A DNA stretch of 64,000 nucleotides, taken from assembly GCF_014287675.1 (NCBI RefSeq), contig NZ_JACOPQ010000002.1:168649-232648 (forward strand), read 5' to 3'. The translations under genes were made by a program, and so were the position numbers. The notes below the pieces were generated by a model. The model saw only the letters and a list, made by a program, of their open reading frames with translations, was not told where the DNA came from and did no database searches. Origin of the DNA: Lawsonibacter faecis (GTDB taxonomy: Bacteria; Bacillota; Clostridia; Oscillospirales; Oscillospiraceae). Of the stretch, positions 44,590-57,261 are shown piece after piece (position 1 is the stretch's first letter; each line of letters opens with the position of its first letter).

Positions 44590-46095
44590 ATGAAGGACAT
44601 CAACACCGCCGTCGCCCAGCTCGCGGCCTACGCCGAGCGCACCGGCCTCATCGAGCCCTGCGAGAGAACCTGGGCCGTAAACACGCTGCTGGAGGGCCTG
44701 GGCCTTAGCTCCTACGCGCCCCCGGAGGGACCCGTGTCCGGGGACGCGGACCTGAACGAGCTTCTCAACGCCCTGATGGACGACGCCCACGCCCGGGGCG
44801 TGCTCCCGGAGGACTCCATCGCCTACCGGGACCTCTTCGACACCGCCCTCATGGGCCGCCTCACCCCCCGGCCCGCCCAGGTGGCGGAGAGGTTCCGCGC
44901 ACTCTACGCCCAGAGCCCCGAGGCGGCCACCGACTGGTACTACAAGTTCAGCCAGGACACCAACTATATCCGCCGCGACCGCATCGCCAGGGACATGAAG
45001 TGGGTCACCTCCACGCCCTACGGCGACCTGGACATCACCATCAACCTCTCCAAGCCGGAGAAGGACCCCAAGGCCATCGCCGCCGCCCGGAACCTGCCCG
45101 CCTCGGCCTACCCCCGCTGCCAGCTCTGCGCCGAGAACGAGGGTTACGCGGGCCGCCTGGACCACCCCGCCCGGGGGAACCACCGCATCGTGCCCATCAC
45201 CATCAATTCCTCCCCCTGGTTCCTGCAGTACTCCCCCTATGTGTACTATAATGAGCACTGCATCTGCCTCAATGCCGAGCACACCCCCATGAAAATCGAC
45301 CGGGCCTGCTTTGCAAAGCTATTAGACTTTACAGCCCAGTTCCCCCACTACTTCGTCGGCTCCAACGCCGATCTGCCCATCGTGGGCGGTTCCATCCTGG
45401 CCCACGACCACTTCCAGGGGGGGCGGTTCACCTTCGCCATGGAGAAGGCCCCCGTGGAGCGGGCGGTCTCCTTCCCCGGCTTTGAGGACGTGGAGGCTGG
45501 CATCGTCAAGTGGCCCATGTCGGTCATCCGCATCGCCTGCGCCGACCGGGCTCGGCTGGTGGAGCTGGCGGACAAAATCCTGACCTCCTGGCGGGGCTAC
45601 ACCGACGCGGACGCCTTCGTCTTCGCCGAGACGGTCGGCGAGCCCCACAACACCGTCACCCCCATCGCCCGGAAGCGCCGCGGCAGGTTCGAGCTGGATC
45701 TGGTGCTGCGCAACAACATCACCACCGCCGAGCACCCCATGGGCCTCTACCACCCCCACGCCGAGCTGCACCACATCAAGAAGGAGAACATCGGCCTCAT
45801 CGAGGTGATGGGCCTGGCCGTCCTCCCCGCCCGGCTCAAGGACGAGCTGAGCGCCGTGGCGGACTGTCTGGCGGCGGGGGTTGACCTCCGGGCCGACGAG
45901 CGGACCGCCAAGCACGCAGACTGGGCGGAGGGCTTCCGTGTAAAGTATCCCTCCATTACAGCAGAAAACGCCATGGATATCGTAAAGGAGGAGACCGGCC
46001 TCGTGTTCGCCCAGGTGCTGGAGCACGCCGGGGTCTACCGCCGCAGCGAGGCCGGACAGGCCGCGTTCCTGAAATTTATAGGGCAGGTGAACTGA
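44590..46095 (+). CDS. galT: UDP-glucose--hexose-1-phosphate uridylyltransferase (type 2 GalT)
   Basis: About 500-aa Firmicutes-type GalT (e.g. YPRCQLCAENEG, HDHFQGG); position in the gal operon. Confidence 0.85.
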   Translation: MKDINTAVAQLAAYAERTGLIEPCERTWAVNTLLEGLGLSSYAPPEGPVSGDADLNELLNALMDDAHARGVLPEDSIAYRDLFDTALMGRLTPRPAQVAERFRALYAQSPEAATDWYYKFSQDTNYIRRDRIARDMKWVTSTPYGDLDITINLSKPEKDPKAIAAARNLPASAYPRCQLCAENEGYAGRLDHPARGNHRIVPITINSSPWFLQYSPYVYYNEHCICLNAEHTPMKIDRACFAKLLDFTAQFPHYFVGSNADLPIVGGSILAHDHFQGGRFTFAMEKAPVERAVSFPGFEDVEAGIVKWPMSVIRIACADRARLVELADKILTSWRGYTDADAFVFAETVGEPHNTVTPIARKRRGRFELDLVLRNNITTAEHPMGLYHPHAELHHIKKENIGLIEVMGLAVLPARLKDELSAVADCLAAGVDLRADERTAKHADWAEGFRVKYPSITAENAMDIVKEETGLVFAQVLEHAGVYRRSEAGQAAFLKFIGQVN

Positions 46096-46096
46096 C

Positions 46097-47143
46097 TTGA
46101 CAGAGCTTACTTCCCGCCCCTTCGGGGCGACTGCAGAGGGGACTTTTGTGGAGTGCTGGACCCTCGATAACCATAACGGCATGACCGCCGAAATTCTGAC
46201 CTACGGCGGCATCCTGCGCACTCTGACCGTCCCCTCCCCCACCGGCCCCCGGGACGTGGTGCTGGGCCTGGACACCGTGGCCGACTACGAGGCCAACCCC
46301 GGCCCCCATCTGGGCGCGCTGGTGGGCCGGGTGGCGGGCCGCATCAGCGGCGCGTCCTTCGCGCTCAACGGCAAGGAATATCACTTGACAGCCAACGCCC
46401 CCCACACCTGTCTCCACGGCGGGGCCAAGGGCTACGCCAAGCAGGTGTGGCAGGCCGAGGCCGTGGACGGCAAGCTGGTCCTGACCTACTTCAGCCCCGA
46501 CGGCGAGGAGCATTTCCCCGGGAATCTGAAGGTAAGGGTCGTCTACGCCCTCACCGCCAACAATTCTCTCACCATCGAGTACTTCGCCGAGACTGACGGG
46601 TCGACCATCGTGAACCTCACCAACCACAGCTATTTCAATCTGGAGGGGCACGGCGCGGGCACGGTGGACGGCCATACCGCCCAGTTCTTCGCCGACTATA
46701 TCACTGAGAACAACGCCGAGAAGGTCCCCACCGGGGTGCTCATCGGCGTGACGGGCACCCCCTTCGACCTCCGGGAGCCCAAGCTCCTGGGTCCCGGCCT
46801 CATAAGCGGCCATCCCCAGATCGCGGCGGCCCACGGGTACGACCATAACTTTGTCCTCAAGTCCCAGCTGGACGGCGTGTTCCAGACCGCCGCCGTCCTG
46901 GAGGCGGGGGGCGTGCGCATGGAGTGCGAGACCACCCAGCCCGGCGTGCAGTTCTATACCGCCAACTTCCTGGATGTGCCCCGGGGCAAGGACGGCGCGG
47001 CCTACGGCGTTCACTCCGGCCTCTGCCTGGAGACCCAGGGCTGGCCCGACGCCGTCCACCACCCGGACTTCCCCTCCCCCGTCCTCAAGCCCGGCGAGAC
47101 GTACCACCACCTGACGGTGTACCGGTTTACAAGCGCGAAGTGA
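46097..47143 (+). CDS. galM: Aldose 1-epimerase (galactose mutarotase)
   Basis: Aldose_epim fold motifs (NHSYFNL, HGG); TTG start 1 nt after the galT stop. Confidence 0.8.
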   Translation: MTELTSRPFGATAEGTFVECWTLDNHNGMTAEILTYGGILRTLTVPSPTGPRDVVLGLDTVADYEANPGPHLGALVGRVAGRISGASFALNGKEYHLTANAPHTCLHGGAKGYAKQVWQAEAVDGKLVLTYFSPDGEEHFPGNLKVRVVYALTANNSLTIEYFAETDGSTIVNLTNHSYFNLEGHGAGTVDGHTAQFFADYITENNAEKVPTGVLIGVTGTPFDLREPKLLGPGLISGHPQIAAAHGYDHNFVLKSQLDGVFQTAAVLEAGGVRMECETTQPGVQFYTANFLDVPRGKDGAAYGVHSGLCLETQGWPDAVHHPDFPSPVLKPGETYHHLTVYRFTSAK

Positions 47144-47183
47144 CCTCCGGTGGCGGGGAAACGCCATTCAAAATCAAGATATA

Positions 47184-47230
47184 CAGCGGGGACCCGCAGG
47201 CCTTTGGCCTGCGGGTCCCCGCTGTTTTTC
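47184..47230 (+). terminator. Strong rho-independent terminator ending the gal operon
   Basis: cagcggggacccgcaggcc-tttg-gcctgcgggtccccgctg + tttttc. Confidence 0.85.
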
Positions 47231-47306
47231 GCCTATAGACGGAACAAGAGCCGAACGCCCGCTCCTGACGTTCGGCTCCCGCACCAAGGAAAGAGGATAC
47301 AATGAA

Positions 47307-47456
47307 ATGAAGAAAGCTGTCTCTTGCAAGTGTTATGATACAGGTAAGTTGTTACGGATTCACTCCTCAAATGTTACAAGGACTTTAAATCTTTTTGGAC
47401 AGTCTGTAAAGCCCGGCGGGAGATGTTCAAATCCACCAGATTGTGCTATACTATGA
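47307..47456 (+). CDS. Candidate small ORF (49 aa, 4 Cys) in the AT-rich leader of the radical-SAM operon; uncertain
   Basis: aggaaagagga RBS 9 nt before ATG; MKKAVSCKCYDTGKLLRIHSSNVTRTLNLFGQSVKPGGRCSNPPDCAIL. Codon usage is AT-rich and atypical for this genome, and a predicted promoter overlaps its 3' end. Confidence 0.25.
   Translation: MKKAVSCKCYDTGKLLRIHSSNVTRTLNLFGQSVKPGGRCSNPPDCAIL
47426..47452 (+). promoter_or_regulatory. Possible extended -10 promoter for the acyltransferase/radical-SAM operon
   Basis: TTCAAA, 15-nt spacer, TGcTATACT. Confidence 0.35.
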
Positions 47457-47489
47457 CAAAGTTTACCTTTTGGAGAGGGCGTGCGGGCC

Positions 47490-48572
47490 ATGGAACTGCG
47501 CTATGCGAACACCCGGCGGGAGCAGGGGGACTACCTGCGCTTTCTTGAGTCGGTCTACCGGGGCGACCCCTGCTTCCGCAGCGCCAATTCCTACCTCCTC
47601 CGCCGGCTCTTCCGCGGCGCCTCCCCCTTCTGCGAGGACCGGGAGATTCTGCCCGCGATGGTGTATGACGGCGGGAGACCGGCGGCCCAGGCGGTGTTCA
47701 TCGCCGCGGGGACGGAGTATCCCGCGCTGCAGCTCGCCTTCTTTGAGGCCCTGCCGGGGCAGGAGGCCGCGGTGGATCTGCTGCTTGCGGAGGGGCGCGC
47801 CCTCTGCCGGGCCAGGGGCCTGCACCGAATCACCGTGGGGCTCAACGGCCATGTGAACTACGGCCTGGGACTGCTGCTGGACGCTCCGGACGCCCCGCCG
47901 GTCTTCGGCTGCGGGTACAACCCCGGCTACTACGCGGACTACTTCGCCCGGCCGGGGCTGCGGGAGGTCCCCATGACCTCCTACCGCTGGAGCATGCCCG
48001 CCGCGGCCCTGGCGCGGTACGGTCCCTACTGCCGCCGCCTGGAGGGGAGATACACCCTGCGCACCGTGTCCGCCCGGACCCTGCGCCGGGACGCGGCCCT
48101 CTACGCGGACCTGTGCAACCGCTGCTTCGAGGGCCACCCCTTCTACTACCCCCGCCGGGCGGAGGAGGACTATGAGATGCTGAGGGAGCTGCTCCTCCTG
48201 GCCGGGCCGGAATTTCTGATACTAGCCTTCCAGGGGGACGCCCTCTGCGGCCTGGCGCTGTGGTACCCCGATTTCAACGAGCTGATTTCCCCCGGCGGCG
48301 GGATAGGCCCCGCCGCCCTGCTGCGCATCAAGCTCCTCCCCCGCAGGATAAGGCAGATGAAGCTGGCCCAGCTGGCCGTCCTGCCGGAGCACAGCCGCAG
48401 GGGCCTCCCCCTGCTCCTGCTGCGGGAGGTGAGCCGCCGGTGCGCCGGGCGGTTCACCGGCGGCGAATCCTCCTGGATACTGGACGGAAACAGCCTCTCC
48501 GCCGATCTCACAACGGCCCTGGGCGGCGCGCCGTACCGCCGCTACGCGGCCTGGGAAATGGATGTGGACTGA
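47490..48572 (+). CDS. Tandem-GNAT (FemAB-like) acyl/aminoacyl transferase family protein 1
   Basis: About 360-aa two-lobe protein with a C-terminal GNAT-like region (LAQLAVLPEHSRRGLPLLLL); RBS ggagaggg; first gene of a coupled five-gene operon. Confidence 0.55.
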   Translation: MELRYANTRREQGDYLRFLESVYRGDPCFRSANSYLLRRLFRGASPFCEDREILPAMVYDGGRPAAQAVFIAAGTEYPALQLAFFEALPGQEAAVDLLLAEGRALCRARGLHRITVGLNGHVNYGLGLLLDAPDAPPVFGCGYNPGYYADYFARPGLREVPMTSYRWSMPAAALARYGPYCRRLEGRYTLRTVSARTLRRDAALYADLCNRCFEGHPFYYPRRAEEDYEMLRELLLLAGPEFLILAFQGDALCGLALWYPDFNELISPGGGIGPAALLRIKLLPRRIRQMKLAQLAVLPEHSRRGLPLLLLREVSRRCAGRFTGGESSWILDGNSLSADLTTALGGAPYRRYAAWEMDVD

Positions 48573-49563
48573 TATGGAGGAGTGCAGGCATACCGTTCTG
48601 CCCGCCCCCACGCCGGAGCTTTTATCCGCCCTGCCGGGCATCGGCCCCCTGGGGGACCCCCGGCTCTGGGCGGGCGCGGCACGGGGCAGCGGCGTTGCCG
48701 TGGAGTGCCATCTGCTGGAGCGGGGCGGGGAGCGCGCCTTCTGCTCCGTCTACCCCCTGCGGCTCAATCTGCTGACCTACAGCCGGGCGCGCCTCTCGTG
48801 GCCGGTCCGGCTGTGCGCCCTCCCCTGCTCGGTCGGCGCGCCGGGGTACTGGGCCTCCTCCCCCGGGATGCGTGAGCTGCTCTTCCGCTACCTCGCCGCC
48901 CTCCCCGGCGGGCTGCTGGTGCTGAATACGGAGGAGTTTCAGGACACGCCCGGCTTCGTCCGGGGCCGCACCCTGCCCGCCTGCGTGCTGGATCTGCGCT
49001 GGGACAGCTTTGAGGCGTATATGGGCAGCCTCCGCGCCCCCTACCGCCGCAGGCTCCGGCTGGCGCGGGCGGCCCTGCCGGGGCTTGCGATCCGGGATTT
49101 GCCCCGGCGGGAGTTCACCCAGGGGCACTACGCCCTCTATGAGAATATCTACCGGCGGTCCGCCTTCCCCGTGGAGAAGCTGACCATCGACTTCTTCCGG
49201 GACCTGCCCGGCGAGCTGGTGGAGTTCTCCCTGGACGGAGAGTGCGTGGGCTTCGTCCAGCTCCTGGGCCGGGGGGACACCCTCTGGTTCTTCTTCTGCG
49301 GCATGGCGGACGGCCTGCCGTGGCGGGCGGACCTCTACTATCTGATGCTCTGCGAGATTGTCCGCCGGGGCATCGAGGGCGGCTACCGGACCGTCGACCT
49401 GGGCCAGACCACCGAGGAGACCAAGACCCGCTTCGGCGCCCGCATTGAGGAGCGGGGCTTCTATGCCCGCCACGCCAACCCCCTCGTGCACAGGCTGCTC
49501 GCCGCCGGAAAGGGGCTGCTGGAGTACCGGGACGTCCCCGCAGCGCACAGACCATTCAAATAG
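48562..49563 (+). CDS. Tandem-GNAT (FemAB-like / Acetyltransf_6-like) acyltransferase family protein 2
   Basis: C-terminal half LYENIYRRSAFPVEKLTIDFFRDL...GECVGFVQLLGRGDTLWFFFCGMADG...YYLMLCEIVRRGIEGGYRTVDLGQT...KTRFGA matches the FemAB-like GNAT fold; overlaps the upstream stop (alternative start 48574). Confidence 0.6.
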   Translation: MWTDMEECRHTVLPAPTPELLSALPGIGPLGDPRLWAGAARGSGVAVECHLLERGGERAFCSVYPLRLNLLTYSRARLSWPVRLCALPCSVGAPGYWASSPGMRELLFRYLAALPGGLLVLNTEEFQDTPGFVRGRTLPACVLDLRWDSFEAYMGSLRAPYRRRLRLARAALPGLAIRDLPRREFTQGHYALYENIYRRSAFPVEKLTIDFFRDLPGELVEFSLDGECVGFVQLLGRGDTLWFFFCGMADGLPWRADLYYLMLCEIVRRGIEGGYRTVDLGQTTEETKTRFGARIEERGFYARHANPLVHRLLAAGKGLLEYRDVPAAHRPFK

Positions 49564-49574
49564 AGGAGGTCTCC

Positions 49575-50888
49575 ATGAAAATTCTGCTTGTCCGCCCCAA
49601 ATTCTTCTCCCTGGTCGCCAACCTGGAGCCCTTGGGGCTGGAATACCTGGGCGGGGCCCTCCGGGAGGAGGGCATCCCCTACGAGATATGGGACGAGTTT
49701 CAGGCCCCCTTCGCCCTCCGCTTCACCCGGCTGCGGCGGAAAATCCGCCGGGAGCGCTTTACCGCGGTGGGCTTCAGCGTGAACGCCAACACCGCCGACG
49801 AGGTGCGGGAGAAGGCCCGCGCCCTCAAGGCGGAGTTTCCCCGGCTCACCGTTCTGGTGGGCGGGCCGGAGGCGGAGGTCAACTACCGGGACTTCTGCAC
49901 CGAGGGCGTGGACTTCGTCTGCTACGACTACGGCGTGGAGACCTTCCGCGCCATGTGCGCCTCCGGGTTTGACCCGGCGGCAGCAGCCGCCCTGCCCGGA
50001 CTGGCCCGGCGGACGGGGGACGGCTGGGTGTGCAATCCCCCGGCGCCGCCCGTCTCCAACTTCACCGTCCAGCCCGACCGGGAGCCCATGCGCCGGAGCT
50101 GGAGGCGCAACTTCATCTTCGGCAAGGGGCCCCACGCCCTGGTGAAGGCCTCCTTCAGCTGTCCCTTCCGCTGCGCCTTCTGCTACTGCACCATGATGAA
50201 CGGCGGGGTTTACACGCAGCGGCCCCTCAGCGACGTGCTGGCCGACATCGAGGCGCTGGAGGCGGAGCGCATCTGGCTGGTGGACGACGATTTTCTCCTG
50301 AACCGGGAACGGGTGGTGGAATTCTGCGATCTGGTGCTGAAAAGGGGCGTCCGAAAGCAGTTCATGGCCTACGCCCGGGCCGACTTCCCGGCGGAGCACC
50401 CGGACCTCCTCCCCCTGCTCTACCGGGCGGGCTTCCGGGACATTCTGGTGGGGCTGGAGGCCGCCGACGACGCCACCCTGGACGCCTACCACAAGGAGAC
50501 GGGCAGGGCGGTCAACGAGGCGGCCATCCGCAATCTCCGGGCCGCGGGGCTGGTGTGCAACGGCCTTTTCGTGGTGAGCCACGCCGCCACCCGGGAGGAT
50601 TTCCGCAATCTCCTGGACTTTATCCGCAAAAACAGGCTCCTATGGGTGGTCTTCGGCATCTTCACGCCCTACAAGGGGAGCGACGCCTATGAGGAATACC
50701 GGGACAGGCTGCTCACCCGCAAAGCCAAAAAGCTGGACGGCCTCCATGTGACCATCCGGCCCGAGCATATGTCCAAGCTCATGTTCTACCTGCGGGTCGT
50801 CCTGCTCCACGCCGCCACCTACCCCAAGCTCCTCTTCCGCATCCTCCGGGGCACCGCCTACGATACGGAGAAGGACGGGTGGTGGTGA
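49575..50888 (+). CDS. Cobalamin-binding radical SAM protein (class B) 1
   Basis: N-terminal B12-binding-like domain (MKILLVRPKF...LGLEYLGGAL). CxxxCxxC motif SFSCPFRCAFCYC. RBS gaggagg. Confidence 0.8.
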   Translation: MKILLVRPKFFSLVANLEPLGLEYLGGALREEGIPYEIWDEFQAPFALRFTRLRRKIRRERFTAVGFSVNANTADEVREKARALKAEFPRLTVLVGGPEAEVNYRDFCTEGVDFVCYDYGVETFRAMCASGFDPAAAAALPGLARRTGDGWVCNPPAPPVSNFTVQPDREPMRRSWRRNFIFGKGPHALVKASFSCPFRCAFCYCTMMNGGVYTQRPLSDVLADIEALEAERIWLVDDDFLLNRERVVEFCDLVLKRGVRKQFMAYARADFPAEHPDLLPLLYRAGFRDILVGLEAADDATLDAYHKETGRAVNEAAIRNLRAAGLVCNGLFVVSHAATREDFRNLLDFIRKNRLLWVVFGIFTPYKGSDAYEEYRDRLLTRKAKKLDGLHVTIRPEHMSKLMFYLRVVLLHAATYPKLLFRILRGTAYDTEKDGWW

Positions 50889-50889
50889 G

Positions 50890-52248
50890 ATGAACGTGCT
50901 GCTCCTCCGCCCCAGACCCCACAGGGAGACCATCGGACTGCAGAACGTGATGATCTGCGAGCCGCTGGAGCTGGAGTACCTGGCCGCCGCGCTCCTGGAG
51001 GCGGGACACCGGGTGGAGATCGTGGATCTGATTCTGGACCGCCGCCCCCTGGAGCGGATTACGGCGCAGTTCCAGCCCCGGCTGGTGGGCATCACAGGGT
51101 ACGTCGCCCATGTGAACGTGGTGAAGGCCCTGGCGGCCCGGGTCAAGGCGCTGGTCCCGGGCGTATGGGTGGCGGTGGGCGGCGTCCACGCCGAGGTGGT
51201 TCCCCGGGACTGGGAGGACCCCGCCGTCGACTTCATCCTCACCGCCGGGGGCGGGCGTACCCTGACCGCCCTGGCCGACGCCCTGGAGCAGGGCTGCGCG
51301 CCCCCGGCGGAGGGCGTCTGGAACCCGGAAGACCCCGTCCGGCGGCCCAACGCCCCGGATCTCTCCGCCCCCCTCCCCTGGCGGGAGGGCGTGGCGCGCT
51401 ACCGCAGGCGCTATTACTACATGTTCCACCGGGACTGCGCCCTGGTGAAGACCTCCTACGGCTGCCCCTACGAGTGCTCCTTCTGCTTCTGCCGGCAGGT
51501 GACCGGATACGCCGCCCGGCCTGTGGCGGACGTGCTGGACGAGCTGGAGACCATCCCCCAGAAGGAAATCTATCTGGTGGACGACGATTTTCTCTTCAAC
51601 GAGGCCCGGCTGGCCGCCTTCTGCGGCGCTCTGGAGGCGCGGGGCATCCGCAAGCGGTACCTGGTCTACGGCCGGGCCGACTTCATAGCCGCCCACGAGA
51701 GCCTCATCGACCGGCTGCGGAGAAACGGACTGAGGGCGGTGATCATCGGCCTGGAGTCCGCCGACGACCGGGAGCTGGACCGCTATCAGAAGCACTCCAC
51801 CGCCCAGACCAACGAGGACGCGGTGCGCATTCTGCAAAGGTGCGGCGTGGAGTGTTACGGAGCCTTCGTCCTGGGCCCGGACTGGGGGAAGGACGAGTTT
51901 CGCGCCCTGGCCCGGTGGATAAAGCGCCTGGGCATCACCTTCGTCAATCTGCAGCCCCTGACGCCCCTGAAGGGCACGCCGGAGTTCGGGGCCTGGCGGG
52001 ACAGGCTCATCGTCCCGGCGGAGGAATTTGAAAAGTGGGACATGGCCCATCTGGTGGTGCGGCCGGGAAAGCTCAGCGTGCGGCAGTACTATTGGCAGAT
52101 GACCCTGCTCTACTGGAAGACCATGGCCAACCCCGCCCGGGCCTGGGGCATGGCGAGGCGTTACGGCTTTTTAGAGACCCTGAAGCTCTCCCTGGGGGCC
52201 ATGAGGGTCAACTGGCAGTACATCAAAAAGATAGTCAGGGGGAAATGA
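50890..52248 (+). CDS. Cobalamin-binding radical SAM protein (class B) 2
   Basis: B12-binding-like N-domain (MNVLLLRPRP...LELEYLAAAL); CxxxCxxC SYGCPYECSFCFC; the start lies 1 nt after the preceding stop. Confidence 0.8.
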   Translation: MNVLLLRPRPHRETIGLQNVMICEPLELEYLAAALLEAGHRVEIVDLILDRRPLERITAQFQPRLVGITGYVAHVNVVKALAARVKALVPGVWVAVGGVHAEVVPRDWEDPAVDFILTAGGGRTLTALADALEQGCAPPAEGVWNPEDPVRRPNAPDLSAPLPWREGVARYRRRYYYMFHRDCALVKTSYGCPYECSFCFCRQVTGYAARPVADVLDELETIPQKEIYLVDDDFLFNEARLAAFCGALEARGIRKRYLVYGRADFIAAHESLIDRLRRNGLRAVIIGLESADDRELDRYQKHSTAQTNEDAVRILQRCGVECYGAFVLGPDWGKDEFRALARWIKRLGITFVNLQPLTPLKGTPEFGAWRDRLIVPAEEFEKWDMAHLVVRPGKLSVRQYYWQMTLLYWKTMANPARAWGMARRYGFLETLKLSLGAMRVNWQYIKKIVRGK

Positions 52249-52250
52249 AC

Positions 52251-53564
52251 ATGAAACTGCTCCTCATCCAGTCCACCCCCTACGACCTGGAGCGCAGGCC
52301 GGTGAAGAAAAAGCGGCTCTACTTCGTGGGGCTGGCCTTCCCCATTCTGGCGGCTCTGACGCCGGCGGACTGGGAGGTGGAGGTCTGCCTGGAGACCATT
52401 GAGGACATCCCCTGGGATACCGACGCGGACCTCGTGGGCATCAGCAGCATGGGCCACGCCGTCATCCGCTCCATCGATATCGCGGCGGAGTTTCGCCGCC
52501 GGGGGAAAACGGTGGTGATGGGCGGGTACATGACCAGCCTCATGCCCGGGGAGGCCGCCAAGCACTGCGACAGCGTCATCGTGGGGGACGGCGAGACGGT
52601 CTGGGCGGAGATGCTCTCAGACTTCGCGCGGGGAGAGCTGAAGCCCCGGTACGAGAGGCCGGTGGAAGCCCTCACCTGGCCCCTGCCCCGGTACGAGCTG
52701 CTGCTCGGCAAGAAAATCGGCAGCTTTCTCCCGGTCCAGGCGGGCCGGGGCTGCCCCCACAGCTGCTCCTTCTGCTCGGTCTACTGCCTGTACCATAACC
52801 GCTACCTCCAGCGGCCGCTGGAGGAGGTGGTCCGGGACATCAGGCGTGTCAGGGAGCTGGGCTTTCGCCGCTTCCTCCTCCTGGACGACAACATCTGCGC
52901 CAACCCCGGCTATATGTCCGCCCTCTGCGACGAGATTAAGAAGCTCGGCATGACCTGGTTCTCCCAGTGCTCCATCAACATCGCCAGGCAGCCGGAGCTT
53001 CTCAGAAAGGCCGCGGAGAGCGGGTGCATCGCCCTCTCCTTCGGGCTGGAGAGTATCTCCAGGGAGAGCCTGGAGGCCATGGACAAGGGCTGGGAGGACC
53101 CGGGGGAATACCGGCGGCTGCTCGGCATCATCGCCGACGCGGGGATCGACATCTCCACCGAGATGGTGGTGGGGGCCGACGGGGACACCCTGGAGTCCAT
53201 CGCCGCCACCGCCGCCTTCATCGAGGAGAGCGGCGCGGTGGTCCCCCGGTTTTACATTCTCACCCCCATCCCGGGCACCCTGTTCCACAAGCAGATGGAG
53301 GAGCAGGGGCGGATTTGGAACCACGATATGTACTCCTACAACGCCGCCGAGGCCGTCCACATCCCCAGGCATATGACCCCGGAGGAGCTGACCAAGGCCT
53401 ACTGGGATCTCTACGAGGCGGTTTTTGCCTACAAGAGCATCTTTAAACGCACGGTGCTGCACCGCCGCTTCTGGCGCAGGCCCTTCATGTACCTCTTCTA
53501 CCTGGGGGTGAACCTCTTTTACAGGGGGCAGATCAAACGGCGGATTACGCCGAATATTATTTGA
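52251..53564 (+). CDS. Cobalamin-binding radical SAM protein (class B) 3
   Basis: B12-binding-like N-domain; CxxxCxxC GRGCPHSCSFCSV; the start lies 2 nt after the preceding stop. Confidence 0.8.
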   Translation: MKLLLIQSTPYDLERRPVKKKRLYFVGLAFPILAALTPADWEVEVCLETIEDIPWDTDADLVGISSMGHAVIRSIDIAAEFRRRGKTVVMGGYMTSLMPGEAAKHCDSVIVGDGETVWAEMLSDFARGELKPRYERPVEALTWPLPRYELLLGKKIGSFLPVQAGRGCPHSCSFCSVYCLYHNRYLQRPLEEVVRDIRRVRELGFRRFLLLDDNICANPGYMSALCDEIKKLGMTWFSQCSINIARQPELLRKAAESGCIALSFGLESISRESLEAMDKGWEDPGEYRRLLGIIADAGIDISTEMVVGADGDTLESIAATAAFIEESGAVVPRFYILTPIPGTLFHKQMEEQGRIWNHDMYSYNAAEAVHIPRHMTPEELTKAYWDLYEAVFAYKSIFKRTVLHRRFWRRPFMYLFYLGVNLFYRGQIKRRITPNII

Positions 53565-53569
53565 CGCCG

Positions 53570-53612
53570 GCAAAGAAGGGGCATTTGGCTCAGCCAAATG
53601 CCCCTTCTTTGC
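53570..53612. terminator. Bidirectional terminator between the radical-SAM operon and vanY-like gene
   Basis: gcaaagaaggggcatttggct-c-agccaaatgccccttctttgc 21-bp stem. Confidence 0.85.
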
Positions 53613-53614
53613 GA

Positions 53615-54427
53615 TTATCGGGCCGTTTCGCTCTCAAGGTATTCCTCCAGGCAGAGGCCCTGCGTATAAATCTCCCGGGCCGCGGCCTGTCCCACGTAGC
53701 GGTAGTGCCAGGGCTCGTAGATGATGCCGGTGGTTTCGCTCTTCCCGCCGGGGTAGCGGAGGATGAAGCCGTACTCCCAGCTGTGGTCCATCAGCCACTT
53801 CTGGACGGCGGTCTCCTCCTGGCTCTCGTTCAGGTTCTGGTTATTGAGGTCCACAATATCCACCGCAAGGCCCAGCTGGTGCTCGCTGGTGCCGGGCACA
53901 GCCACGGCCTTGGCGGCCTCGGTCTCCGCCTCCGCCCGCGCATACCCCAGGGCGAGGAGCTTGTCCACCTGGTTATTGTAGAGCCGCTCCTGCCTGTCCG
54001 TCGAGCGGTAGGCGGAGCAGATCACCGGCGAGAGGCCCGCCGCCCGGCAGTCGTCCATCATCTCCTGGAGGGCGGGATAGCAGCGCTCGTCCACGAAGAG
54101 GCCGTTTTTCAGCTTCACCAGGGTCGCCTCGTACCCTTCGGGGAGGGGGTTCCAGGGGTTGACCAGAAGCAGCCGCCAGTCGTCGGCGGCGGGCTTGTCC
54201 GCCGCCGGATCGGACGCCGGGGGAGAAACGGCGTCCGGGGACACGGGCTGCGCCTCCTCCTGTACCACAAGCGTATCAATGCCGCCGGACGGCCATTCGG
54301 CCACCCAGCGGGCCCCCATGAGCAGCAGTCCCACCGCCACCGCCCCGGCCACCGCCAGCCGTGTACCTACGGTCCGCCGCCTGCGCCGCCGCGCGCGTAC
54401 CATGCCGTTTCCGTCTCTGCGTCCCAT
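53615..54427 (-). CDS. D-alanyl-D-alanine carboxypeptidase, VanY / peptidase M15B family, membrane-anchored
   Basis: SAYRSTDRQERLY, SEHQLGLAVD and EPWHYRYVG zinc-peptidase motifs; N-terminal Arg-rich + TM anchor. Start set at Met37 of ORF 53615..54535. Confidence 0.8.
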   Translation of the reverse strand: MGRRDGNGMVRARRRRRRTVGTRLAVAGAVAVGLLLMGARWVAEWPSGGIDTLVVQEEAQPVSPDAVSPPASDPAADKPAADDWRLLLVNPWNPLPEGYEATLVKLKNGLFVDERCYPALQEMMDDCRAAGLSPVICSAYRSTDRQERLYNNQVDKLLALGYARAEAETEAAKAVAVPGTSEHQLGLAVDIVDLNNQNLNESQEETAVQKWLMDHSWEYGFILRYPGGKSETTGIIYEPWHYRYVGQAAAREIYTQGLCLEEYLESETAR

Positions 54428-54513
54428 ATGAAAAATCACCCTTCTTTCTGTTGATGACAACAGGATAGAGGGGTGATTCCTCATGCCGGCAACGCTCCGG
54501 CATCCAAACGGCA

Positions 54514-55209
54514 TCAGAGGTTGAAATAAATCCATTCGCCCCGCAGGCGCAGGGCGGCCGACCGCCCGGAGGCCTCGCCCTCCGCCGCTTTAAAGAAGGT
54601 AAGGAGATAATCGCCGGACCCCTCCCCGTGGGCCTCCAGCGCGGCACTCACCTCATCCACGGGGTAATTGGTGCGGCAGTACTCCGCCACGGCCATGACG
54701 GACTCCTGGTACGGGCTTTTCACAAAGCTCACCGTGGGGACCCCCACCCGGATCTGGAGGGCCACCATCAGGCCGCTGCCGTCGTCCAGCCAGAGGGTTT
54801 CCCGGACGCCTGCGTCATCCGTCCACACGCAGCGCCAGTAGACGGCGCAGAGGCCCGGGTCCTCCCGGCTGGTGATGAGTACCGGCGTGACTGCGGGGAC
54901 GGTATAGACCATCCCCAGGGCCGACAGCTTGACCATCGTATCGGTGGCGGCGGCCCGGACCTCCTCCGCCGTCATCCGGCGGCCCCCGGCCAGCTCCACC
55001 TGGGACTGCCCCAGGTCGAAGAACGCCAGGGCCTCAAGGACGTCCATGTCCTGGGTCAGTACCAGCGAGACCTGGACGTCCTCCCGCTGGGAGATCTCCC
55101 CCAGCAGCCGCCGGTCCAGGGCCAGCGCGGTGATGCGCGGCAGGGCCGCGCCCACGCACAGAAGCAGGAGCGTGAGGAGGATGGGTATCAGCTTAGCAGC
55201 CCGCTTCAT
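54514..55209 (-). CDS. Secreted/membrane hypothetical protein co-transcribed with the two-component system
   Basis: Signal/TM N-terminus MKRAAKLIPILLTLLLLCVGA; overlaps the HK stop. Confidence 0.55.
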   Translation of the reverse strand: MKRAAKLIPILLTLLLLCVGAALPRITALALDRRLLGEISQREDVQVSLVLTQDMDVLEALAFFDLGQSQVELAGGRRMTAEEVRAAATDTMVKLSALGMVYTVPAVTPVLITSREDPGLCAVYWRCVWTDDAGVRETLWLDDGSGLMVALQIRVGVPTVSFVKSPYQESVMAVAEYCRTNYPVDEVSAALEAHGEGSGDYLLTFFKAAEGEASGRSAALRLRGEWIYFNL

Positions 55210-56606
55210 GCCGCGCCCCCTCTCAGCTCCGCCGTTACGGTGGTCCCCTGCCCCGGCGCGCTCTCAAAGCGGAGGGCTCCGCCGTGGAGCGCCGCGATCT
55301 CCCGGCACAGGGCCAGGCCCAGCCCCGCGCCCCCCTGCTCCCGGGAGCGGGATTTGTCCACCCGGTAAAAGGCGTCGGTCAGGTGCTCCAGGGCCTGGGG
55401 CGGAATACCCCGCCCGCTGTCCCGCACGGTAATGCGGCAGCCGCCGGGCAGCATTTCGGAGCGGACGCGGATCTCGCCCCCCCGGCCGTCCATGGCCTTG
55501 AGGGCGTTGTCCCAGAGGTTGACCAGCAGAGACTTGACGAGGTCCGGCTCCATGAGGCAGACCCCCTCGGCGCAGATGCAGGTGAGCGCCACCCCCTGCC
55601 GCGCGTAAATCGGCCCCAGATGGGCGGCCAGGCCCCGGATCAGGGCGGCGGGCCGGACCGGGACGAGGGACGCCCCGCCCCGCCTCAGCACCAGCAGGTC
55701 CATCAGCTTCTGGGAGAGGTTCTCCAGCCGCTTGCCCTCGGCCACGATATAGTTTGCGGCCTCGGCCTGCTCCTGGGGGCTCAGGGTCTGGCCCCGGAGC
55801 AGATCGGCATAGCCGATGATGGAGGTCATGGGGGTCTTCATCTCGTGGGCAAAGCTGCCCAAAAAACGCTCCTGCCGTTCCACCGCCTCCTCCAGCTGGG
55901 AGATGGTGCCCTCCAGCGCTTCGGCCATGGTGTTGAAATCCCGGGCGACGAGGCCAATCTCGTCCTCAGAGCGGACCCGCACCCGGCTGGAGAGCCGCCC
56001 GGAGGCCAGAGCCCGGGACGCCCCGGAGAGGCTCACCAGGGGCTTTGTGAGCACATGGGAGATGCTGTACGAGAGCAGGGCGCACAGGCCGGCGGTCAGA
56101 AGGAAGACCCACAGGTAGGTCTGCTGCTGCATCCGGCGGGTCTCGAAGAGGGACGAGATGTCCCGGGCCAGGTCCAGGCGGAGCGTCTCTCCCCCCGCCT
56201 CCAGGGCGCCGGTCAGGGCCAGGGCGTACCCGCCGCCGTCCGTGGGCACATAGCGCATCACGCACCGGCCGGGCTGCACGGGCTGCGGGGAAACGGCCAG
56301 CGCGGCGGGGCCGAACGCATAGACGCTCTCCCCGCCGGCGGAGAGGCGCAGGGCCGTCCAGGCCCCCCCGTTCCGGCCCGAGAGCTGCTCCAGCGTGGAG
56401 GAGATATCGGCGTAATCGGACTGGCCGGCGGCGCTGTTGACGATGCGCAGGGTGCCCACCACCATCTGGTAGGCGTTGTACGCCGCCTGCTGCTCCCGCT
56501 CCAGCGTGTTCTGAAACGAGATGGAGATGAGCAGGCTGCCCCCCACGCCGAACAGAACCGACAGCAGCCCCAGCATACAGAGGGTCATCTTCAGGCGAAA
56601 CTTCAT
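55206..56606 (-). CDS. Sensor histidine kinase (HAMP-HisKA-HATPase)
   Basis: H-box SFAHEMKTPMTSIIGYADLL; G-box GGAGLGLALCREIAALHGG; two TM segments. Confidence 0.9.
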   Translation of the reverse strand: MKFRLKMTLCMLGLLSVLFGVGGSLLISISFQNTLEREQQAAYNAYQMVVGTLRIVNSAAGQSDYADISSTLEQLSGRNGGAWTALRLSAGGESVYAFGPAALAVSPQPVQPGRCVMRYVPTDGGGYALALTGALEAGGETLRLDLARDISSLFETRRMQQQTYLWVFLLTAGLCALLSYSISHVLTKPLVSLSGASRALASGRLSSRVRVRSEDEIGLVARDFNTMAEALEGTISQLEEAVERQERFLGSFAHEMKTPMTSIIGYADLLRGQTLSPQEQAEAANYIVAEGKRLENLSQKLMDLLVLRRGGASLVPVRPAALIRGLAAHLGPIYARQGVALTCICAEGVCLMEPDLVKSLLVNLWDNALKAMDGRGGEIRVRSEMLPGGCRITVRDSGRGIPPQALEHLTDAFYRVDKSRSREQGGAGLGLALCREIAALHGGALRFESAPGQGTTVTAELRGGAA

Positions 56607-56607
56607 C

Positions 56608-57261
56608 CTATACCTCCAGGCGGTAGCCCACCTTGTTCACCGCCTGGAGCTGCTTCTCCCAGCCCACCTTTTTCCGCAGGCGCTGCACGTGCAGGTCCAC
56701 CGTCTTGCTGCCGAACTGGTACTCCTCGCCCCAGACCCGCTCGTAGATGGTCTCCCGGAACAGGGCCCGGCGGGGGTTCCGGGCGAAGAGGAGCAGCAGG
56801 TCGTACTCCTTTTTGGTCAGGGCAATCTCCGCGCCGTCCCGGCGCACCTGCATGGCGCAGGGGTCAATCTCCAGGCCGCCCACCCGGAGCACCGCCTCGT
56901 TCTTCCGCCAGCGGCGCAGCACCACGTCCACCCGGGCCAGCAGCTCCACAATTTCAAAGGGCTTGACGATATAGTCCTCAGCCCCGGCCCGGAGGCCCCG
57001 CACCCGGTCGTTCACCGCGTTTTTCGCCGTGATGAAGATGACCGGCATCTCCATGGGGCGGATGTACTCCATCAGCTCAAAGCCGTCGATCTCGGGGAGC
57101 ATCACGTCCAGCAGGACGAGGTCATAGCGGCCCCGCTCCAGCAGATCGGCGGCCTCCGCCCCGTCAAAGGCGCAGGTACAGGCGTAGCCCTCCTTGGTCA
57201 GGCTGAGGCGAAGCAGATTGGAGATGGGCTTCTCGTCCTCCACAATCAGGATTCTTATCAT
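56608..57261 (-). CDS. OmpR/VanR-like response regulator
   Basis: MIRILIVEDEKPI receiver domain; winged-helix C-terminus VGYRLEV; RBS aaggaggg. Confidence 0.9.
   Translation of the reverse strand: MIRILIVEDEKPISNLLRLSLTKEGYACTCAFDGAEAADLLERGRYDLVLLDVMLPEIDGFELMEYIRPMEMPVIFITAKNAVNDRVRGLRAGAEDYIVKPFEIVELLARVDVVLRRWRKNEAVLRVGGLEIDPCAMQVRRDGAEIALTKKEYDLLLLFARNPRRALFRETIYERVWGEEYQFGSKTVDLHVQRLRKKVGWEKQLQAVNKVGYRLEV

Follow-up and report, generated by a model that had tools for sequence, protein, structure and literature searches.

A conserved gene cassette that pairs MshD-type and FemX-fold tandem-GNAT transferases with B12-type radical SAM enzymes in Lawsonibacter faecis and other bacteria

Transferases built from two domains of the GCN5-related N-acetyltransferase (GNAT) fold act in several described systems. 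In the late steps of mycothiol synthesis, the cysteine ligase MshC is followed by the tandem-GNAT acetyltransferase MshD. FemX and the other FemABX enzymes, the synthase domain of MprF, and Sbb17 share a second fold of this kind, and VlmA, PacB and DhpH/DhpK are also aminoacyl-tRNA-dependent tandem-GNAT transferases. A separate group of enzymes, the class-B radical S-adenosylmethionine (SAM) enzymes, includes TokK/ThnK, CysS, PhpK, QCMT/MgmA, HpnR and BchE, in which an N-terminal Rossmann-like B12 domain precedes a CxxxCxxC core; the bottromycin and thienamycin clusters each encode several class-B paralogues. We know of no described tandem-GNAT tRNA-dependent transferase system that is paired with B12 radical SAM enzymes. 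Here, we describe such a pairing in a 64,000-nucleotide (nt) window of the Lawsonibacter faecis genome, the window being the whole stretch of DNA analysed and all coordinates being positions in it. The operon in question (47490-53564) consists of five genes, g1 to g5, of which the first two encode tandem-GNAT proteins and the last three radical SAM proteins with a B12-type domain.

All five genes lie on the forward strand. From the list of open reading frames (ORFs) and the raw sequence, g1 occupies 47490-48572 (360 amino acids, aa) and is followed by g2 at 48562-49563 (333 aa, or 329 aa from an alternative ATG at 48574), g3 at 49575-50888 (437 aa), g4 at 50890-52248 (452 aa) and g5 at 52245-53564. 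The length of g5, 439 aa, is counted from the ATG that overlaps the g4 stop codon; the ORF list has a longer GTG-started frame, and it is the overlapping start that fits all homologues. Neighbouring genes overlap by 11 nt (g1/g2) or by 4 nt in an ATGA (g4/g5), or are separated by gaps of 11 nt (g2/g3) and 1 nt (g3/g4). Because overlaps or short gaps are found at all junctions, the five genes are translationally coupled, as a preliminary description of this DNA had proposed, and the ORF list, the raw sequence and the four tight junctions bear this out.

The AlphaFold model of g1 (predicted local distance difference test score 93.9) was found to be a tandem GNAT of the MshD type and not of the FemAB type. 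Its structural neighbours are MshD, glucosamine N-acetyltransferase and ORF14, and Eis also has this type of fold. The chain contains two GNAT domains, with a coenzyme A (CoA)-binding beta-alpha loop (Q/R-x-x-G-x-G/A) in the C-terminal one, and no match was detected among the Pfam or NCBIfam models. The structure model thus predicts that g1 is a tandem-GNAT N-acyltransferase of the MshD/glucosamine-N-acetyltransferase/Eis structural type, and the protein defines a family without a Pfam or NCBIfam model.

The g2 protein has a single Pfam match, to Acetyltransf_6 (PF13480; residues 156-286, 1e-7), with none to Pfam FemAB (PF02388) or to any NCBIfam model. Its structure model is a compact tandem GNAT with FemX topology, for which the top structural matches were Sbb17, FemX, FemA and MprF. 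Searching the PDB with the single sequence and with a 32-sequence profile returned no match, so the likeness of g2 to FemX/FemABX, to the MprF synthase domain and to Sbb17 is one of fold, with no similarity detectable at the sequence or profile level. The view that both transferases are FemAB-like therefore stands for g2, which is FemX/MprF/Sbb17-like and carries Acetyltransf_6, but not for g1, with its MshD-type model and lack of a Pfam match. The coiled-coil arm of FemA has been proposed to bind tRNA, and a FemX-type coiled coil of this sort had been suggested as a feature to look for in the first two genes. We looked for a FemA-like arm in the g2 model and saw no inserted helical hairpin, the longest helix having at most 18 residues. 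This does not exclude the use of tRNA, because Weissella FemX and Sbb17 also lack the arm. The isoelectric point, tried as a proxy for tRNA binding, was not discriminating, all five families being mildly basic or neutral, and no dedicated tRNA gene or aminoacyl-tRNA synthetase paralogue is encoded in or beside the clusters examined. On the basis of its modelled fold, g2 is a candidate aminoacyl-tRNA-dependent (or aminoacyl/acyl-thioester-dependent) amide synthase. Both g1 and g2 merit family models of their own.

The radical SAM signature CxxxCxxC reads CPFRCAFC in g3, CPYECSFC in g4 and CPHSCSFC in g5. To our knowledge, class-B enzymes have no universal cobalamin-ligand motif. Both Pfam domains were clearly matched by g3 (PF02310, 56.0 bits; PF04055, 58.5 bits) and g4 (60.4 and 55.4 bits), whereas g5 matched PF04055 at 62.7 bits and PF02310 only marginally (32.7 against a cut-off of 32.1), the latter domain being weak or faint in g5 orthologues as well. 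Motifs and profiles agree on the N-terminal B12-binding-like domain and radical SAM core that had been described for the three genes, and confirm a class-B architecture. All three proteins end in hydrophobic, aromatic-rich C-terminal tails.

None of g3-g5 reached the NCBIfam equivalog cut-off for HpnR, BchE, PhpK, BzaD or QCMT, scores being 4- to 10-fold lower. The best matches of g3 and g4 were to HpnR (120 bits for g3 and 162 for g4, the best of all, against a cut-off of 650) and BchE (119.5 against 481). For g5, the PhpK family came first (83.8 against 600), followed by ApyD and a "ladderane" B12 radical SAM model; QCMT (41 against 360) and BzaD (39 against 450) were also recorded. Compared with PDB chains, g3-g5 gave E-values of 6e-3 to 5.5e-13: g3 and g4 matched AprD4, TokK and TsrM weakly, and the nearest solved structures to g5 were AprD4 (5.5e-13) and the QCMT entry 9CCB (8.9e-11). 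The 9CCB entry is QCMT/MgmA, which C-methylates a glutamine of methyl-coenzyme M reductase, and AprD4 carries a Rossmann-like domain yet binds no cobalamin (radical SAM review). It is reasonable from these matches to regard g3 and g4 as cobalamin-dependent methylases. Cobalamin binding by g5 is doubtful, because its B12 domain is marginal and AprD4 is among its nearest solved relatives. Of the three cobalamin-dependent enzymes originally proposed, the B12-domain architecture is retained in all, and cobalamin dependence is questionable for g5, whose nearest solved relatives are the cobalamin-free AprD4 and the methylase QCMT.

We next asked how widely the gene set is kept. Relatives of g1 were collected by a word-indexed search (59 relatives, all about 360 aa), an exhaustive profile search (420 clusters at 50% identity, E<=1e-30) and a scan of one genome per species, which found a relative in 199 species. 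Locus counts given here come from 80 loci of that scan, 83 in all, some of which share contigs, and orthogroups of the radical SAM proteins were obtained by clustering at 42% identity. Most carriers are Clostridia (Lachnospiraceae, Clostridiaceae, Oscillospiraceae, Peptostreptococcales and Sedimentibacter). The remainder include Ca. Electrothrix/Desulfobulbaceae, Calditrichales, members of the Planctomycetes-Verrucomicrobia-Chlamydiae (PVC) group with Kiritimatiellia and Lentisphaerales, Sumerlaeota, Cloacimonadota and Prolixibacteraceae. Among cultured carriers are Anaerovirgula multivorans, Youngiibacter multivorans, Lachnospiraceae bacterium G41, Alloiococcus sp. CFN-8 and Acetoanaerobium noterae, together with the human-gut isolates Lawsonibacter faecis and Pseudoflavonifractor phocaeensis. 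A plasmid collection gave a single match, on an unannotated 2.6-Mb replicon of A. noterae.

The genes g1 and g2 are adjacent in 77 of the 83 loci and are followed by one to six B12-type radical SAM genes. One 718-aa protein (P0157) is a natural g1-g2 fusion, its C-terminal half being 35% identical to g2 (E 6e-36), which argues that the two act together. Orthogroup A, to which g4 belongs, has 62 locus members and orthogroup B, that of g5, has 54, so that nearly every locus of sufficient length is represented. The variable member is g3: its orthogroup, D, is confined to the window, a close relative (L086) and the Lachnospiraceae-type loci, with orthologues of 52-54% identity. Further orthogroups (C, E, F and G) occur elsewhere, and an enzyme of group C, F or G nearly always adjoins a class-I SAM methyltransferase of about 210 aa, which is present in 53 loci and absent from the Lawsonibacter operon. 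Median identity to the window proteins is 34% for g1, 36% for g2, 50% for g4 (best homologue, 72 loci) and 63% for g5, which is the most conserved protein of the cassette and holds this level across phyla. In L086, a 61%-identical relative, the layout of five genes is exactly that of the window. The conserved core is therefore g1, g2 and the radical SAM proteins A (g4) and B (g5), and loci differ in carrying zero to four further B12 radical SAMs beyond it, a variation in number that is typical of variable tailoring. The gene block proposed from the window alone is thus kept in Oscillospiraceae and in several phyla, recurring in 80 loci. No exporter, regulator, glycosyltransferase, nonribosomal peptide synthetase (NRPS) or polyketide synthase (PKS), tRNA gene or small ORF is conserved across the loci. 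Genes such as purC and those for SelO-like, NiaR-like, DegV and aldo-keto reductase proteins were considered as cassette members and rejected as lineage-specific synteny.

Several variants of the cassette were noted. Of the Ca. Electrothrix/Desulfobulbaceae loci (L055, L059, L067 and L068), the cable-bacteria loci L059 and L067 have a reduced cassette, in which g1-g2 are accompanied by a class-I methyltransferase and one B12 radical SAM of group G; these contigs are long enough to hold the otherwise core radical SAMs A and B but lack them. Two consecutive g1 paralogues stand before g2 in the Cloacimonadota-type loci L079 (9899-12185) and L090 (10001-12186), with a DUF4070-type B12 radical SAM and a decarboxylase upstream of the doubled g1. 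The wider g1 family also contains fusions (P0292, P0302, P0242, P0248 and P0157) of the types PilZ plus g1-like, 2x[4Fe-4S] ferredoxin plus g1, g1-g1 tandem and g1-g2, and the PilZ fusions suggest control of distant g1 paralogues by cyclic di-GMP.

Genes next to the core in other lineages bear on its possible substrates. In 22 Lachnospiraceae-type loci, an AMP-binding ligase and a PP-binding carrier protein of 72-85 aa are encoded upstream of g1; the best matches of the ligase are long-chain fatty-acid-CoA ligases, all below cut-off. In six independent contigs (L079 of Cloacimonadota, L083 of Prolixibacteraceae, L085, L090, L091 and the JGI contig of P0041), a pyridoxal-5'-phosphate (PLP) decarboxylase of the ornithine/diaminopimelate/arginine fold overlaps the start of g1. 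The copies compared, those of L079, L083 and L085, are mutually orthologous (413-501 bits), and the two scanned (L083 and L085) are LysA-like, scoring 155-169 bits against an NCBIfam cut-off of 298. Kiritimatiellia, Lentisphaerales and one Electrothrix contig have an AdoMet_dc homologue immediately upstream of g1, the L046 copy scoring 61 bits against an equivalog cut-off of 75.65; in other Electrothrix/Desulfobulbaceae contigs, the homologue is 4-7 kb upstream. By analogy, these accessory genes suggest that the acceptor is an amine or an amino acid and that, in some lineages, the acyl donor is bound to a carrier protein. The Lawsonibacter operon itself contains no decarboxylase, ligase, acyl carrier protein (ACP) or methyltransferase gene. 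Elsewhere, a NUDIX-HD protein is encoded in one locus and two additional radical SAMs of non-B12 type in one, and in some loci an ABC-ATPase-like gene, a CobW/HypB-like GTPase and a PF04060 Fe-S protein accompany the radical SAM genes. This trio, found at L017 16793-19630 (also in L029, L034 and L037), may serve delivery or reactivation of a metal or corrinoid cofactor; in L017, it is followed by a 227-aa uncharacterised protein and then by the g5 orthologue.

How, then, does the cassette compare with the described systems? The order proposed below for g2 and g1 is like that of MshC and MshD. However, MshC is a paralogue of cysteinyl-tRNA synthetase, whereas ligation is here assigned to a FemX-fold enzyme; sequence identity between g1 and MshD is about 17%, no MshA or MshB genes are present, and mycothiol synthesis involves no radical SAM tailoring. 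A second point of comparison is the exosortase-A (PEP-CTERM) module, an uncharacterised set consisting of the AMP-ligase TIGR03098, an ACP, the PLP decarboxylase TIGR03099 and the FemAB-like TIGR03019. Around g1-g2, too, these four kinds of enzyme recur, albeit in different lineages: a ligase, a carrier protein, a LysA-like decarboxylase and an Acetyltransf_6-type GNAT. The cassette decarboxylases score only 72-95 bits against the TIGR03099 cut-off of 478, and g2 matches no NCBIfam model; the module has no radical SAMs and the cassette no exosortase context. As for the class-B enzymes, g3-g5 share their domain order, although the marginal B12 domain of g5 sets it apart and it may not bind cobalamin, like its look-alike AprD4. 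We searched the literature on B12 radical SAM enzymes together with GNAT, FemAB, ACP, polyamines, membrane-spanning lipids, Sbb17 and 9CCB, and found no description of the gene set. With NCBIfam scores far below cut-offs and no known system recognised by PADLOC, the earlier failure to match the gene order to a characterised pathway still holds. The parts belong to known superfamilies, and their combination, the g1 family and the product are uncharacterised among the curated models, solved structures and literature searched.

The above findings led us to a reading that we favour with rather less than even confidence: the cassette would build and tailor a small N-acyl-aminoacyl-amine, a lipo-amino compound or pseudo-peptide of minimal size, and would need neither an NRPS nor a ribosomal precursor. 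In this model, g2 would transfer an aminoacyl group onto a primary amine to form an amide. Its donor would most likely be aminoacyl-tRNA, a carrier-bound thioester being possible in the lineages with the AMP-ligase and ACP. The acceptor could be a diamine, a polyamine or a diamino acid, supplied or decarboxylated by the LysA-like or AdoMetDC-like enzyme beside g1 in lineages that encode one, and presumably drawn from housekeeping metabolism in Lawsonibacter. The g1 enzyme would then N-acylate the new free alpha-amine with acyl-CoA as donor, or with acyl-ACP in the lineages that encode the ligase and ACP, in keeping with the MshC-then-MshD logic of mycothiol and with that of the Sbb17-type enzymes named in the PDB entry. 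Finally, the radical SAM enzymes would modify unactivated carbons of the peptide-like scaffold, g3 and g4 most likely by C-methylation with cobalamin, and g5 by methylation or some other radical transformation.

Several lines of evidence point this way. That a FemX-fold enzyme is so regularly paired with an MshD-fold one suggests that an amine is N-acylated twice in succession. The recurrence beside g1 of decarboxylases of two unrelated folds is consistent with an amino-acid-derived amine acceptor, or with a diamino acid that is decarboxylated later. The ligase/ACP pair suggests a carrier-bound acyl donor in Lachnospiraceae. By analogy, the nearest characterised relatives of g5, whose substrates are an N-acetyl amino acid for PhpK, ribosomally made and modified peptides for ApyD and a protein glutamine for QCMT, would also fit a small N-acyl-aminoacyl-amine. 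A more far-reaching form of this model is possible, though we would lean against it: a previously unrecognised, phylum-spanning tRNA-dependent route in which the FemX-fold enzyme aminoacylates a (poly)amine, the MshD-like GNAT caps it and one to six B12-type radical SAMs install C-methyl groups or other changes, giving small amide products or cell components that are neither ribosomal nor NRPS-made. The makers would be Oscillospiraceae and Lachnospiraceae of the human gut, bacteria of the rumen, Clostridia of digesters and, with the reduced cassette, cable bacteria.

Several observations weigh against the N-acyl-aminoacyl-amine model. The resemblance of g2 to FemX-type enzymes is in fold alone, and CoA thioesters may also serve Acetyltransf_6 members as substrates. 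The Lawsonibacter operon lacks the accessory genes, so what they mean for Lawsonibacter is extrapolation, and the predicted cobalamin binding by g5 is doubtful. The lack of a conserved exporter would be unusual for a secreted metabolite, and the acceptor could be an amino sugar, given that the neighbours of g1 include amino-sugar acetyltransferases. The best NCBIfam matches of g3 and g4, HpnR and BchE, act on lipophilic substrates; this likeness and the hydrophobic aromatic tails fit a membrane lipid substrate at least equally well. More generally, the donors, the acceptor, the order of reactions and the chemistry of each radical SAM enzyme are inferred from folds, domains, gene order, the gene fusion and gene sets.

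The lipid alternative is the one that we take most seriously, while considering it unlikely. In it, g2 (MprF-like) or g1 would aminoacylate or N-acylate a lipid head group or make an N-acyl amine lipid, and the radical SAMs would methylate or cross-link hydrocarbon chains, like HpnR and the archaeal and bacterial lipid radical SAMs. MprF/LysPGS is among the best structural matches of g2, and HpnR and BchE are the top NCBIfam matches of g3 and g4, but their scores are far under the cut-offs, and g1 (360 aa) and g2 (333 aa) were modelled as compact tandem GNATs without a fused MprF-type flippase domain, no formal transmembrane prediction having been made. The long-chain-fatty-acid-CoA-ligase-like enzyme with its ACP in 22 loci, the C-terminal tails of g3, g4 and g5 and the absence of an exporter conserved across loci would all suit a lipid product. 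Conversely, the block has no conserved genes of glycerolipid, fatty-acid-synthase or polyprenyl type, GNAT or acetyltransferase partners go unmentioned in a 2026 review of the radical SAM enzymes that modify lipids, and the decarboxylases indicate amino-acid-derived substrates.

We consider it distinctly improbable that the substrate is an amino sugar or a cell-envelope polymer. Here g2 would attach an amino acid to the amine of an amino sugar or stem peptide, in the manner of FemX or Sbb17, g1 would N-acetylate, and the radical SAMs would tailor the sugar or side chain as AprD4 does. Glucosamine N-acetyltransferases and MshD are among the best matches of g1; the structure of Sbb17, the best match of g2, contains the amino-sugar compound streptothrisamine, and peptidoglycan precursors are the substrates of FemX; AprD4, the nearest solved relative of g5, is an aminoglycoside enzyme. 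In the window, the operon stands between the gal operon and a gene for VanY, but these neighbours are found in no other locus, and the block has no conserved glycosyltransferase, sugar-nucleotide or Mur/Fem genes. Control of exopolysaccharide systems is a frequent role of PilZ domains, and distant g1 relatives are fused to PilZ; these fusions, however, are distant paralogues at about 170 bits.

Peptides that are made on the ribosome and modified after translation (RiPPs) had been listed among the possible products, and B12 radical SAMs commonly tailor RiPPs and proteins. Methylation of a ribosomal peptide or a conserved protein, with the GNATs acylating its N-terminus or lysines, is nevertheless very unlikely in our view. 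Weak matches to ApyD, rSAM_ocin_1 and the methyl-coenzyme M reductase glutamine methyltransferase agree with it, the very high conservation of g5 would suit a conserved macromolecular substrate, and a 49-aa Cys-rich ORF is present in the leader of the operon (47307-47456). That ORF, however, does not occur in L086, the 61%-identical relative, whose leader does not align with that of the window operon, and the other loci have no counterpart of it. Among short ATG-started ORFs on the same strand around the block, no family is common to the loci beyond near-identical genomes. It is because no precursor ORF is conserved that the RiPP reading is disfavoured; we also found no conserved leader peptidase, RiPP recognition element or transporter genes, and the carrier protein, ligase and decarboxylases indicate small-molecule chemistry instead. 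A role in anti-phage defence was rejected, since PADLOC matched no known system and only the candidate model PDC-M51A, weakly (25.8 bits for g4 and 19.6 for g5).

The B12-dependent radical SAM enzymes are the hardest class to which to assign a function, and the cassette offers a compact, conserved and apparently self-contained set of four to five genes, without NRPS, PKS or precursor peptide, in which to approach them. More than half of radical SAM classes are without validated function (radical SAM review). As carriers include cultured strains, human-gut isolates among them, the cassette is directly testable. Should the N-acyl-aminoacyl-amine model prove true, it would extend tRNA-dependent amide synthesis into anaerobe and gut-commensal metabolism, provide new substrates for class-B radical SAM enzymology and identify a new family of metabolites or envelope components from gut and rumen.

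Lawsonibacter faecis and the Pseudoflavonifractor carriers are human-gut Oscillospiraceae. By exact-sequence look-up, g1 is identical to a Lawsonibacter faecis protein, and g4 and galT have identical copies in Pseudoflavonifractor sp. BIOML strains as well as in Lawsonibacter faecis. Copies of g5 that are near-identical and differ in their start occur in L. faecis and the same BIOML strains, and the P. phocaeensis copies fall in the same 90% clusters. NCBI annotates g1 as "hypothetical protein" and g4-g5 as "B12-binding domain-containing radical SAM protein", g3 not having been looked up. Recent horizontal transfer into the Lawsonibacter genome was rejected, the GC content of the operon being that of its flanks.

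Upstream of the operon lie galE, galT and galM, the last ending at 47143. A terminator on the forward strand (47183-47230) closes the gal operon: a perfect 20-bp hairpin at 47183-47225 (-47.9 kcal/mol, z -10.96) is followed by UUUUU. At the other end, a second perfect 20-bp hairpin (53570-53612; -38.1 kcal/mol, z -7.9, on the forward strand and -37.6 kcal/mol on the reverse) is predicted to act as a bidirectional terminator between g5 and the convergent VanY gene. The preliminary description had placed the operon after the gal operon as a separate transcription unit isolated by strong terminators, and the two hairpins that bracket the block, one of them following galM, agree with this. A consensus terminator scan of 46000-55000 listed 11 weak sites and missed both hairpins, because its stem and tail rules exclude them. 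On the reverse strand, the region 53615-57261 encodes a VanY D,D-carboxypeptidase, a 231-aa protein without a Pfam match, a histidine kinase and a response regulator, all converging on the operon terminator; such surroundings were not seen beside the cassette in other genomes.

Upstream of g1 there is a 250-nt spacer rich in AT, with a GC content of about 0.60 against 0.65-0.72 in the flanks and about 65-70% for the genome. Within it, we read by eye a putative promoter on the forward strand (47424-47452), with a weak -35 element (TGTTCA) and an extended -10 element (TGcTATACT, 47444-47452), which a consensus promoter scan did not call. This agrees with the AT-rich leader and promoter-like element proposed for this operon, the promoter being putative. 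A Shine-Dalgarno-like sequence, GGAGAGGG (47472-47479, forward strand), stands 10 nt upstream of the g1 ATG. Folding of the leader is no stronger than that of shuffled sequence, and a riboswitch or leader RNA was rejected because Rfam matches at E<=1 were chance matches on the terminators only. The 49-aa Cys-rich ORF (MKKAVSCKCYDTGKLL...CSNPPDCAIL, forward strand) lies in the same spacer, on the upstream side of the putative promoter, with the purine-rich stretch AAGGAAAGAGGA before it; not being conserved, it was rejected as a leader peptide or RiPP precursor. Just after the galM terminator, a second GC-rich hairpin, GAGCCGAACG...CGTTCGGCTC, without a U-tract, is found on the forward strand at 47248-47278.

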